A stretch of DNA of 12,295 bases from a virus (lineage: Duplodnaviria; Heunggongvirae; Uroviricota; Caudoviricetes), in the IMG/VR virus record IMGVR_UViG_2531839233_000006, one strand, 5' to 3'. This document shows positions 1,020 through 9,401 of this stretch, one piece after another; within the stretch, counting starts at the first letter, position 1; the number at the start of each line of letters is the position of its first letter. The position numbers and the translations under genes were made by a program. The notes under the pieces were generated by a model. It saw only the letters and a list, made by a program, of their open reading frames with translations. It made no database searches and was not told the origin of the DNA.

Positions 1020-4000
1020 TTAATCCACTCCCACTTTTTTGTTGTACTCGCGGTTAAACCGATCCACGGCAATTTTCATATCCCGCTCTACCGATTTCAC
1101 CATCGCCGACTGTTGCGCCAGACTGAGAGTACTGTCGGCGTAAATGGCATCACGCTGTTTACGCAAATCCTTCAGTCTCTTCCGGGTATCCTGCATAAGC
1201 CCGTTCATCGACAATTTTCCGTTGTTCTCGTCAATGAACGCCGTTCTTTCTGCACCGGTCAGACTCTTCAGCTCTGCGTGATACTGCGCAATCTCTGTCA
1301 TCCGGTCGTACATCTTCTGCTGGTCTGCATACGGCATCACCTCCCCCGAAATTTTCCCCAGGAAGGGCACCTGCTGTTCCGGTATATCAATACCATTCAG
1401 CGATTTCACCGCCGCATCCGTGGTTTTGGAAATGAAGCGCCCTGTCCCTCCGGAGATATAGTCAATCCAGAATTTCAGCGATTCCGGTGTGATATCCACC
1501 GCGCCGGGACGGTACTGGCTGCCACCTGAGAACGCATTCAGCCAGGATGCAAACGCCTTGTACGCTTCTGGCGTTGAACGTCTTCCCAGCTGGCTGTCAG
1601 GTTTTGGTGTACCAAACGGCATGTTCTCCTGGTAAATCTGCGCCCCCATGAAGTTTTCATTCATGGCAAGGTTCGCAAACGGACGCAGAATGGTCGGCGC
1701 TGCATTTTTCAGCAATGCCCCGGACAGTGTTTCCGACGTCTCACTGCCAATCGGGCTGAATGCACCAAGCACACCACCAACAACATTACCGGCAGCACGG
1801 GACGCCGTCAGGTCACCCGCCGCCACACCTTCAGCAGTATGCCCGAGCAGGAAGAAAACGTTGTACCCGTAAGGCAGAGGAATACTCCAGTACTCTCCGG
1901 CCTTGCCCCCGAACACCGATTTCATAATGACGAGGTTACGCTCTTTCACATGAGACGGCACCTTGTCATACCAGTTAACCCCGTCATCATCCTCACCCGC
2001 CACGCTGCGGTTAAGCGAGCCAAGCAGATAACCTGCTCCCACAGCGGCAAGCGCGATTTTCTGCGGAACATTCAGATTCTTCCAGCGAAGGCGCTCCAGT
2101 AAAGGTCCCTCACCATTAAGATGTCCGAGCGTTCTCACCAGATTTGCCGTTCCCTGAATGCTGGCGTTGGCGAACATGTACAGCGAATTCATCAGCGCCC
2201 CCTGCTCACCACGACGGTTAAAGTTCACCGTCATGTTTTTGGCAAGAGACGCCGCCTGCTGGCGTGACAAACCGGCATCACGGGCGTGCTTATAGGCAGA
2301 AAGACGCAGAGCGTTTTCAACCGCACCGTTGGCATCCTCGACAAGGTTAAGGAACGAATTCCATGCACCGATACTCTGGCCTTTCCATCCCCCCTTCGCC
2401 AGTGAGACAAGGCGATCCATTTCCTTCTGCTGGCCTTCAAGGTCACCCATGTTAAACCAGCCGGTTTTCCCTCCGTCCTCAACAAACTCTTTCCACACCT
2501 TCTGCCACTGTGCACCTTTTCCCGTGAGGGTTTTACCACGCAGACTGGCGTATACGGCTGACATGGCAGAACGGCTGTCTTTCACCACAGCCAGGGCGGA
2601 TAAGTTATCCAGCCCTTTCAGTTTACCGTCGCTCCTTCCCTGCTCCGCCTTCAGGTTCATCACCGCCGTCTGCACGTCACGGATGAAGTTACTGACCAGG
2701 AATTCCGGGTTATACGACGTGTTCACCGTTGCCAGGAAGCGGTTAACTTTCCCCAGCGTACGAACAAAGGCATTGCTGGTTTCCGGTCCCATACTCTTCA
2801 TCGCACGCATCAGGCGCGGATCATGGAGTTTGATGTAGTACGTTTTGCCGTTCTTTTTGGTGGTGAAGTACCGGTCTGCCATCATTGCCATCGGTACAGG
2901 GCGTTCGACAACTTCGCGAATGGTTTCACCAGTTTCCTGGTCCTTGCGCTCTGCAATCGTCCGCATGGTATCCGGTCTGTCATCGGTGAATACCTGCCAG
3001 TAATCCTTGTCGGGATTATCCTGCACCAGTTTCAGGAAGGCGTTACCCACTTCGTTTTTGCGATGGCGGATCAGCGATTCGCTCAGGTCCTGTATCGCCT
3101 GAGTGGACGGAGACTGTGCCCGGGATGCACGCCCCATGGCCTGCCTGCTTTCACGTCCGCCGATGGTGAAGCCCTTACCTGTACGGGGCAGTGACACCAC
3201 ACCGTCAACATCCTGACCTTTCAGGGGAACGTAGTAACGGTAGGCGTTCTGCCAGGCATCCACCACACCGTTCTCTTCAAGTCCGGCCTCACGGATAAGC
3301 TCACGGCGACGGGCCAGCATATCGTCAATAATCCCTGCCAGACGGTCATACTGTGCCTGTTTGCCACTGTTACGTACACGCTGCATGATTTCCGCCGCTT
3401 CCGCGTTGGTCATCCCCGAACCGCCGTCCGGCATTTTCGGGTTGATTTTCGCGATATGCGCGTTACGTTCCGGCGCGTGACGGGCGTAGAGGTACTCATC
3501 CAGATCGGCCTGCGCAATTTTGTAGTCCGCCAGTAATTTAGCCAGTGGCTGAACGTAGCGCTCCTTCATCACGTTCAGGTCGTTTTCCGCCTTCCCGTGG
3601 AAGAGTTCTTCCGCCATATAAGCGTTGTTACTGTCGTCCACTTTGCCGCCAGTTTTACGGATATTCTCCTGAACAGCTTTCAGCACCTGGAATTTATCCT
3701 GCATCTGGCGCACAAAACGCGATGCAATTGTCTCTTCCGGTGTCAGACTGCTGGTACGGGAGTAATACGGCCCCTTGCGAATATCTTCAGGATAGAGTAT
3801 TTTATCCGCAGAGCCGCGATAAGAATGTTCCCCTTTGGGCAATTGGAGCCCTCTGTGCAGAAGGTTATCGCGGCTTAATTTTTCTCTCCGGTACAACGTT
3901 AACCCGGTCATTTCCATACTCTTCAGTTTTTTTCCATTTTCTGTACCGTAAACAGAAGCTACCTTGTTGATTTCCAGACGCGACCGGACAGCCTTCATGT

Positions 4001-9401: not shown

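Follow-up and report, generated by a model that had tools for sequence, protein, structure and literature searches.

The stretch of DNA analysed here, 12,295 nucleotides long and referred to below as the window, comes from a tailed virus (Caudoviricetes; IMG/VR virus record IMGVR_UViG_2531839233_000006) and is dominated by one giant gene on its minus strand. Positions 1-12233 are 100% identical to the Stx2-converting phage 933W and to many sibling Shiga toxin (Stx) phages. Of the records in the phage collection, 265 match the window and 186 carry at least 80% of it, and most of the window is present in 419 of 5,426 complete E. coli genomes. The giant gene (ST933Wp72) takes up 14% of the 933W genome, and no gene of the phages spreading Shiga toxin among E. 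coli is larger. It is the same gene as ORF80 (ECs1242) of phage Sp5 and gp47 of phage phi24B, with no biological difference between them, and the deletion and proteomics data obtained on these orthologs apply to it directly. Its product matches phrog_616 of PHROGs (function unknown) over the full length and is labelled LPD5/LPD38 domain-containing protein in RefSeq. A preliminary description of the window had recorded a single uninterrupted frame of 2793 codons (1020-9401, minus strand), both of which the list of open reading frames (ORFs) and the translation confirm. It had further proposed an internal or ejection protein of the virion, or a polyvalent protein. This class assignment is now supported by four Pfam domains, by the operon position and by the abundance of the phi24B ortholog in virions from whose density map it is absent. 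Its further remarks, that the protein belonged to no named family and might be an uncharacterised member, did not hold: besides the RefSeq label, a deletion phenotype has been available since 2016 and an ejection-protein proposal since a preprint of 2026.

The frame runs open from 1020 to 9440 without interruption and would comprise 2,806 codons if counted from its first ATG. We consider position 9401 the more likely start, because GGAG is located 5 nt upstream of it, because the 13-residue extension (9402-9440) would bring in the only two Cys residues of the protein, and because the 2,793-residue form is the one used in assemblies (gene-caller product in 197 blocks of public assemblies). No comparable Shine-Dalgarno sequence precedes the ATG at 9440 and the public assembly collection holds no record of the 2,806-residue form; RefSeq nevertheless annotates 2,806 residues. 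The coordinates of all features are collected in Table 1.

Table 1. Features of the 12,295-nt window in order of position (aa, amino acid residues of the giant protein)
Feature	Position	Strand	Basis and remarks
YgiW/YdeI-type BOF (OB-fold) gene	125-469	+	Signal-peptide-like N-terminus; known 933W moron on the opposite strand
62-aa ORF (ST933Wp73)	549-737	-	phrog_1925, function unknown; same strand as the giant gene, 283 nt after it
GC-rich hairpin CCCCGTAC-GGAA-GTGCGGGG	991-1010	-	9 nt past the stop codon of the giant gene; without U-tract
Giant coding sequence (933W ST933Wp72, Sp5 ORF80/ECs1242, phi24B gp47)	1020-9401	-	2,793 aa and stop
Universal C-terminal module, aa ~1887-2793	1023-3743	-	Includes Pfam LPD38, aa 2476-2681 (window 1359-1976)
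Junction motif 3, GPYYSRTSS, aa 1877-1885	3747-3773	-	After PBECR, just before the C-terminal module
Predicted PBECR / MuF_C RNase domain, aa ~1695-1838	3888-4319	-	Pfam MuF_C; alpha+beta model; description of Iyer 2017
Junction motif 2, ASFQYSRSG, aa 1676-1684	4350-4376	-	Directly after zincin 2
Putative zincin metallopeptidase 2, HExxxH type, aa ~1477-1665	4407-4973	-	HEIIHH at aa 1551-1556 (window 4734-4751)
Junction motif 1, VAFYSRKG, aa 1446-1453	5043-5066	-	Directly after zincin 1
Putative zincin metallopeptidase 1, aa ~1194-1449	5055-5822	-	HEWFH at aa 1284-1288 (window 5538-5552)
Cassette front: helical subdomain aa ~906-1037 and alpha/beta LPD5 region aa ~1040-1171	5823-6695	-	Pfam LPD5; AlphaFold2 pLDDT mostly >90
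Acidic linker, aa ~440-900, Pro-rich from aa ~700	6702-8084	-	Composition; no Pfam match
N-terminal conserved domain, aa ~120-455, Gly/Ala-rich	8037-9044	-	Homologs in the family and in Vibrio phages
Gly-zipper-like segment, aa 407-426	8124-8183	-	Weak Gly-zipper Pfam matches; ends the N-terminal domain
421-aa gene (Sp5 ORF79/ECs1241, phi24B gp48)	9471-10736	-	phrog_601; essential virion protein, unseen in map
83-aa Gly-zipper gene, annotated 'bacteriocin'	10747-10998	-	phrog_594; Pfam Gly-zipper_YMGG below threshold
148-aa gene (phi24B gp50 homolog)	11008-11454	-	phrog_596; virion protein
218-aa gene (phi24B gp51 homolog)	11457-12113	-	phrog_611; virion protein with Gly-rich C-terminus; weak phrog_8003 'virion structural protein' match; start as RefSeq
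ycgM-like chromosomal DNA fused to cut phage operon	12219-12295		Phage identity stops at 12233

The wider locus of 933W contains the phage structural genes. Its late operon leads from terminase, portal, major head protein and adaptors through tail fibres, Lom and several small genes to the giant gene, beyond which lie a YgiW-like moron and then a hok/sok module. Adjacency of the polyvalent gene to virion or late genes is seen in 933W and in 24 other contigs. Directly upstream of the giant gene are four genes on the same strand, separated from one another by 2-10 nt and from the giant gene by 69 nt. The picture of an operon of small, partly membrane-active proteins that ends with the giant gene is correct in part. 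The giant gene is the last structural one, although a small same-strand ORF follows it, and of its four upstream companions only the 83-residue product has a clear Gly-zipper segment of membrane type.

The role of the gene was addressed genetically in Sp5. Mondal et al. 2016 (PMC5155283) deleted ORF80 and observed that the phage genome was still excised and packaged into DNase-resistant heads of normal appearance; the mutant formed no plaques and no lysogens, its particles did not bind anti-tail-fibre antibody, and complementation from a plasmid brought back lysogenisation. Deletion of ORF79, which encodes the 421-residue neighbour, had the same phenotype (PMC5155283). The giant gene is thus essential. 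The authors reported a match to COG1483 and proposed that the product acts as an AAA+ ATPase in tail assembly.

Location of the protein is given by phi24B. In a bioRxiv preprint of 2026 (10.64898/2026.04.10.717836) gp47 was detected in purified virions but was not visible in the cryo-electron microscopy map; the authors proposed an ejection protein packaged in the capsid. In the proteome supplement gp47 ranks second by spectral count (10,962 total spectra against 17,998 for the capsid protein), and its peptides originate from every region, including the one with the active-site motif HEWFH. The other products of the operon were detected as well: gp48, the 421-residue protein, with 1,634 total spectra (179 in the batch sample versus 101 for portal), gp51 with 523, gp50 with 129 (83 in the batch sample) and an 86-residue homolog of the Gly-zipper protein with 13. 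All five operon products are therefore present in virions, and none of them is in the atomic model. The giant protein accordingly belongs, through the literature on its ortholog, to proteins found in the virion but outside its shell and tail, which is the position of an ejection protein. Batch counts scaled to proteins of known copy number give roughly 20 copies of the giant protein and 36 of the 421-residue one, both being crude estimates. A secreted toxin or an adhesin is ruled out by the virion context and the proteomics, and no full-length homology to a characterised protein of unrelated function was found.

These data bear directly on the proposal made for Sp5. If the protein took part in tail assembly or belonged to the tail itself, possibly as an AAA+ ATPase that consumes energy, this would explain why heads filled with DNA and of normal look remain unbound by the antibody against tail fibres, and it would agree with the reported COG1483 match. 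We nevertheless consider it very unlikely. Neither a Walker A ([AG]xxxxGK[ST]) nor a Walker B motif (hhhhD[DE]) occurs in the 2,793 residues, and no ATPase family of Pfam is matched. The tail model of phi24B, made of portal, two adaptors, nozzle, fibres and needle, is complete without gp47 (10.64898/2026.04.10.717836). Finally, an assembly factor would not rank among the most abundant proteins of the virion. We suggest instead that the gene probably encodes a giant internal virion protein of short-tailed Stx phages, that is, a modular polyvalent protein in which a C-terminal delivery core carries an N-terminal payload and which is ejected together with the DNA.

The part of the protein that would serve as such a core is its last ~900 residues. 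An exhaustive HMMER search with this module retrieved 8,528 clusters (50% identity) at E<=1e-3 and 4,762 at E<=1e-30. In all of the 150 best representatives the module is the last part of the protein, with between 0 and 4,294 residues ahead of it and a median of 3 behind it. About 65 of its columns are invariant, many of them polar, as in NMTVNFNRRGE and YMFANASIQGT. The Pfam domain LPD38 (PF18857) is matched inside it at profile positions 2-189 of 189 (E=7.8e-48, 163.5 bits). To Iyer et al. 2017 (PMC5512222), LPD38 was one small domain, restricted to phages and without an assigned function; in our analysis it belongs to a unit of ~900 residues that is always C-terminal and looks like the essential core. 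The AlphaFold2 model of the module is confident (predicted local distance difference test, pLDDT, 80; predicted template modelling score, pTM, 0.77) and mostly helical with one beta subdomain. Searches of solved structures by sequence or by family profiles returned low-complexity noise only and no analogue of the module. In the predicted viral structures of BFVD it matches nothing but the C-terminal pieces of other LPD38 giants, among them a PTXU04 protein and proteins with RelA/SpoT, lytic transglycosylase or methylase payloads. The hydrophobic Gly/Ala-rich segments noted earlier near the C-terminus (aa 2449-2467 and 2504-2553) are real and conserved, and the stretches aa 2449-2467, 2536-2554 and 2562-2580 are hydrophobic and nearly free of charge throughout the family.

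What precedes the module varies widely. In relatives it is joined to lytic transglycosylase (SLT), methylase plus helicase, LPD3, PBECR1 or RelA/SpoT domains, and metagenomic homologs add ArdC-N, RadC, InPase and GNAT. The gp16 protein of Burkholderia phage BcepMigl (4,658 aa) carries SLT, Eco57I methylase, Helicase_C and PBECR1 with the module last, and the giant protein of Ralstonia phage YL1 (3,168 aa) carries SLT and LPD3, again with the module last; Vibrio phage D62 has a module-bearing giant of 3,066 aa. The range of hosts is not limited to Gram-negative bacteria. Methanosarcina virus MetMV, recorded with an archaeal host, encodes a 3,002-residue protein (contig L005, 2584-11589) with 28% identity over 88% of the module, and Bacillus phage Page, a podophage of a Gram-positive host, encodes a 1,679-residue one (contig L006, 5181-10217). 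The role of the module is therefore not specific to the Gram-negative envelope. In the Burkholderia, Ralstonia, Vibrio, Bacillus and Methanosarcina viruses its gene is the last of the structural genes or close to the last, and in BcepMigl, D62 and YL1 a gene of ~470-540 codons stands directly before it. Judged by sequence, the payload is swappable while module and operon context remain constant. Homologs that consist of little more than the module exist too; one of 1,042 residues closes a same-strand operon. A 981-residue module-only LPD38 gene was also observed in an unusual setting, alone between recombination and lysogeny genes of a prophage-like region of Amphritea (contig L011, 10001-12946); the 10 kb to its left and to its right are free of structural genes, and it may be a prophage remnant.

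Some of these relatives invite a different view, namely that the protein is a dispensable anti-restriction cargo like DarB of phage P1 and seems essential only because the K-12 test host restricts DNA left unprotected, not for a structural reason. Homologs in Burkholderia phages possess a DarB-like methylase and helicase and are annotated accordingly, a DarB-like PHROG matches the C-terminal part, and polyvalent proteins have been predicted to counter restriction. The Bcep22-like 'DarB-like' giants are, moreover, packaged in virions and share both LPD38 module and operon position with the 933W protein. We find this highly unlikely all the same. DarB has an N6-adenine methyltransferase and helicase core, neither of which Pfam detects in the 933W protein, and the part shared with the 'DarB-like' homologs is the LPD38 module and not that enzymatic core. 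P1 DarB is also an accessory protein, in contrast to the essential protein of 933W type. The deletion removes tail-fibre labelling too, which is a particle defect. The 2,198-residue LPD38 protein of E. coli phage PTXU04, in which nothing confident is recognized beyond LPD38, is critical for efficient infection, and module-only homologs exist. Essentiality combined with a universal C-terminal module therefore makes a DNA-delivery core with attached payload more likely than an optional anti-defence effector.

Upstream of the module the protein can be divided into several parts. Iyer et al. 2017 (PMC5512222) defined polyvalent proteins as a class and described, along with the LPD domains, a zincin 'MPTase' hub as well as the RNase fold of PBECR (MuF-C). 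The presence of at least two domains of this network in one polypeptide marks a member, and the 933W protein has LPD5, LPD1, MuF_C and LPD38 as well as two zincins of MPTase type. Besides LPD38, Pfam matches LPD5 at aa 1051-1200 (E=6.5e-45, 153 bits), LPD1 at aa 1361-1440 (84.5 bits) and MuF_C at aa 1750-1839 (E=1.3e-17, 64.2 bits versus a cut-off of 27.6), the thresholds for the four matches being 27-27.6 bits.

The N-terminus had been characterized in the preliminary description as Gly/Ala-rich, acidic and of low complexity. The composition is as described (25-33% Gly+Ala across aa 100-500, net charge -10 at aa 401-500), yet most of this region is a conserved domain and no low-complexity sequence. 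It occupies the N-terminus of 9 of the 150 family representatives, recurs with 27% identity in giant proteins of Vibrio phages, and contains one hydrophobic stretch by hydropathy (aa 181-199). The Pro-rich linker noticed earlier was found as well (11-12% Pro over aa 700-900). It forms part of a longer acidic region that has homologs in 2 of the 150 representatives and almost none beyond close relatives, and that is probably largely disordered. Among Stx phages the N-terminal 460 residues are the least conserved part of the protein (92-100% identity; window 8022-9401) and fall into identity bands of ~99%, 94% and 92%, as opposed to 98-100% for most of the C-terminal module (window 1023-3875). 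Compared with the core, the front end is therefore the faster to evolve or recombine.

Behind the linker, aa 903-1449 make up a single LPD5-zincin-LPD1 cassette, which exists as a standalone version of ~480 residues in many bacteria and is present in 32 of the 150 representatives. Its putative peptidase is well conserved: H1263, E1265, H1284, E1285, H1288, D1291, E1375, R1379 and E1382 are invariant in 60 homologs of 29-52% identity. In the AlphaFold2 model (mean pLDDT 84) the metallopeptidase regions adopt a zincin fold; that of the cassette consists of a core helix, three strands, the HExxH helix and a Glu helix, with H1263 in strand 2. Iyer 2017 distinguished a phage-type MPTase, recognised by a His that closes strand 2 and an Asp located three residues past HExxH, from another variant with HExxxH, and the two metallopeptidases of the 933W protein fit these two variants. 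By sequence and model, zincin 1 is the phage-type variant. Pfam 'LPD1' is the C-terminal, Glu-helix part of zincin 1 and no independent domain.

The second region had, like the first, been listed as HExxH (HEIIH following HEWFH). Both motifs are indeed there and conserved, and in 40 copies of the second one H1551 (97%), E1552, H1556 and E1607 (100% each) are retained while H1555 is variable, so that at family level its motif reads HExxxH. Zincin 2 occurs in 44 of the 150 representatives, often no more than ~70 residues from the C-terminal module, and has zincin-type secondary structure in the model. Both regions thus look like conserved zincin peptidases with intact catalytic residues, the second being of the HExxxH type. 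They are followed by a predicted RNase domain of the PBECR fold, for which Iyer 2017 gives as marks a His towards the N-terminus and a Ser or Thr towards the C-terminus. Beside the Pfam match, H1752 and S1816, and also S1775 and H1801, are invariant across six divergent copies. The phi24B preprint (10.64898/2026.04.10.717836) calls MuF-C a peptidoglycan-degrading metallopeptidase. By the definitions of Pfam and of Iyer 2017 it has a PBECR RNase fold, and the two metallopeptidases are separate, unannotated domains. We recognized no peptidoglycan hydrolase or lytic transglycosylase in the 933W protein, unlike in the BcepMigl and YL1 homologs with their N-terminal SLT.

Two further properties of the sequence are relevant to the proposed delivery. 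Firstly, cysteine is avoided. The 2,793 residues contain none, nor do the four proteins encoded upstream (window 1020-12113), whereas portal, terminase and p62 of 933W carry 6-8 each. The avoidance is family-wide: of the 378,557 residues in 150 representatives, 51 are Cys (0.013%), and 121 of these proteins have none at all. The near absence of Cys fits a passage in unfolded state through the tail and an oxidising periplasm. Secondly, a short motif of the form [ILVMP]-x-[FY]-S-[RK] marks three domain boundaries of the protein and may be a processing or docking site. [FY]S[RK] occurs five times in the 933W protein against 1.25 expected (P about 0.009). In 116 homologous payloads it was observed 200 times versus 106 expected, with 86-111 occurrences for permuted control motifs. 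Within the 43 residues that precede the module, the shorter form [ILVMP]x[FY]S is present in 41% of 134 homologs; among random payload windows the figure is 3%, which amounts to a family-wide enrichment of ~13-fold. The flanks of the motif are enriched in Asp, Asn, Gly, Ser, Thr and Pro. The place of motif 2 is taken in homologs by AQFSQ, VSFNRS or VQFSKGG. Iyer 2017 (PMC5512222) predicted host delivery, countering of restriction and autoproteolysis for polyvalent proteins; the main text defines no cleavage sites, does not contain the linker motif and does not mention 933W.

If the motifs are processing sites, the protein could, though we regard this variant as rather unlikely, be a self-processing polyprotein on a new kind of delivery core. 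The zincins would cut the linker motifs after ejection and set free the LPD5 cassette and the PBECR RNase, and the liberated LPD38 module would act as a near-universal conduit or gate for thousands of phages, short-tailed and other, and in the archaeal virus as well. Tryptic peptides from phi24B virions run across motif 1 (ETDKGVAFYSR and GVAFYSR) and motif 3 (ILYPEDIRNGPYYSR); trypsin itself cuts after Arg and would mask any processing cut after the Arg of the motif. No spanning peptide was found for motif 2 in phi24B virions, where the flanking sequence differs. Spectra of gp47 are spread from the top gel slice down to ~60 kDa in a sample stored for 6 months, the slice counts available being per protein and not per peptide.

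Returning to the reading in which a delivery core carries a payload, its mechanism can be imagined as follows. The C-terminal LPD38 module would be the functional core that brings the protein into the head, probably by way of the co-conserved ~420-residue neighbour and the portal region, just as the C-terminal domain of the virion RNA polymerase (vRNAP) of phage DEV binds the tunnel protein gp72. Once the tail needle is released, the protein would leave by way of the tail, either before the DNA or with it, along with the four small operon products, and would help to build or gate a path across the envelope by means of its conserved, nearly charge-free helices. The N-terminal payload would thereby enter the cell. 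Once inside, the PBECR domain may act on RNA by cutting it, and the peptidases may either cleave the polyprotein at its conserved [FY]-S-[RK] motifs or turn against proteins of the host. An activity against host defence, considered in the preliminary description, would likewise be conceivable.

This scheme resembles what is known of N4 and DEV. Their vRNAPs (N4 gp50, DEV gp71) are giants of 3,400-3,500 residues encoded, like the 933W gene, at the end of a structural operon, in which a gene for a small membrane protein is followed by one for a 520-640-residue protein and then by the giant; 933W has the same order. The operon partners of the vRNAPs are gp51 and gp52 in N4 and gp72 and gp73 in DEV. 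The DEV paper notes that DEV gp71, like the ejected N4 vRNAP, is without cysteine. The vRNAPs were detected by mass spectrometry while being invisible in maps, and their C-terminal region is the best conserved, all of which is likewise true of the 933W protein. This C-terminal domain binds the tunnel protein, with a zincin motif upstream of it. Of the smaller products, the small one is the outer-membrane pore, and the ~520-residue one forms a ring at the portal in the virion and a periplasmic tunnel after ejection. Both 933W and N4 have a T=9 capsid, and the coat protein of 933W has a domain of N4 type. The vRNAP_dom and N4_RNAP_helical domains of N4 gp50 are, in turn, missing from the 933W protein by Pfam, and Pfam finds no LPD38 in gp50. 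By analogy, then, the resemblance likely lies in the mode of working and not in family membership. A similar parallel can be drawn with gp14/gp15/gp16 of T7 and gp7/gp20/gp16 of P22, which are internal proteins of short-tailed phages, encoded in the order small-medium-large and needed for infectivity, as in 933W. The large T7 gp16 carries a lytic transglycosylase, as do the BcepMigl and YL1 homologs; the 933W protein lacks one and is more than twice the size of gp16.

One may ask whether the protein has to leave the capsid at all. It could stay inside to plug the portal, to organise the DNA as a core or to fill up the large T=9 head, for example, being abundant, internal and needed between DNA packaging and tail attachment. 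T=9 heads of these phages hold 8-12 kb less DNA than the N4 head and so have room for much protein, and the preprint (10.64898/2026.04.10.717836) notes a possible internal 'core' that constrains the orientation of the tail in full particles. We give this explanation little credence. Enzymes with conserved active sites would be pointless if they never met a substrate, the avoidance of Cys and the lytic transglycosylases of homologs point to action in the periplasm or the cell, and the analogues in DEV and N4 are ejected or proposed to be so. The dataset of the preprint (10.64898/2026.04.10.717836) contains ~36,000 ejected particles.

Several observations weigh against the delivery core with its payload. 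The Sp5 mutant is not labelled by anti-tail-fibre antibody, which a pure cargo model does not predict; the loss suggests that internal proteins are needed before, or for, stable attachment of the tail, perhaps for completion of the head. Exit from the capsid and entry into the cell are steps that we infer. Homology to the C-terminal encapsidation region of N4 vRNAP was rejected, as hhalign gave a probability of 15% and an alignment only at the peptidase motif, and neither the C-terminal module nor the whole protein resembles ejection proteins of T7 or P22 type in sequence or fold. The protein has no classical transmembrane helices, its hydrophobic C-terminal segments (Kyte-Doolittle 0.8-1.2) staying under transmembrane strength. 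PADLOC matched it to no known anti-defence or defence family. As the peptides spanning motifs 1 and 3 come from virions, the [FY]-S bond of these motifs is uncut before and during packaging. Lastly, ~20 copies may be an overestimate, ~4 having been reported for N4 vRNAP.

The remaining genes of the operon fit into the same frame. The 421-residue protein is a candidate partner or tunnel protein, the counterpart of DEV gp72 and N4 gp51 by position and size; a syntenic gene of 404-644 codons precedes the giant gene in BcepMigl, Vibrio phage D62, YL1, JC1, N4 and contig L012. In Burkholderia phage JC1 both the 4,515-residue homolog and its 510-residue upstream neighbour are virion-associated. The proteome table of phi24B labels gp48 'Transcription factor?'. 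The 86-residue Gly-zipper homolog was dismissed in the preprint (10.64898/2026.04.10.717836) as a contaminant owing to its 'bacteriocin' annotation. The 83-residue protein of the window scores 25.7 bits against Gly-zipper_YMGG (cut-off 28.9; E=9.4e-6), and we think it more likely to be a minor, membrane-active virion protein than a contaminant.

Downstream of the giant gene, the hairpin that follows its stop codon was read directly from the sequence and was not called by the terminator scan. The short ORF beyond it is surrounded by a promoter-like site (968-939) and a terminator-like hairpin (559-539), and the hok/sok module begins just beyond the left end of the window.

The right end of the window is unusual. 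Positions 12219-12295 are 96% identical to an internal part of ycgM, a chromosomal gene of E. coli, and ~15 nt are shared between this match and the one to 933W. At this point the late operon is severed, inside the 3´ end of the ST933Wp67 homolog, of which only the last ~27 nt are left. None of the complete E. coli genomes searched spans the junction of phage and ycgM; a 39-mer across it is absent from representative genomes and metagenome contigs, and a 61-mer of the ycgM-like part from representative genomes. The five-gene cluster may therefore have belonged, in its source, to a truncated or rearranged prophage, or it may be a chimera of assembly. With the operon cut at 12233, our statements on phage context and function rest on 933W and intact relatives, not on the source.

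The gene, its family, the knockout and the proposal of an ejection protein were known before. New here are the universal C-terminal module without solved analogue and its swappable payload, a revised map of the domains (two zincins, the second of HExxxH type, with LPD1 lying inside the first), the linker motif, the avoidance of cysteine throughout the family, and the recognition that the whole operon encodes virion proteins unseen in the map. The linker motif together with two intact peptidase sites makes the prediction of autoprocessing testable by mutagenesis, for which the complementation system of Sp5 exists. If the LPD38 module is a DNA-delivery core, it would define a very large, uncharacterised class of ejection proteins with more than 8,500 clusters, extending from Burkholderia and Vibrio to Bacillus and Methanosarcina, and its variable front end would be a natural slot for the delivery of enzymes into cells.

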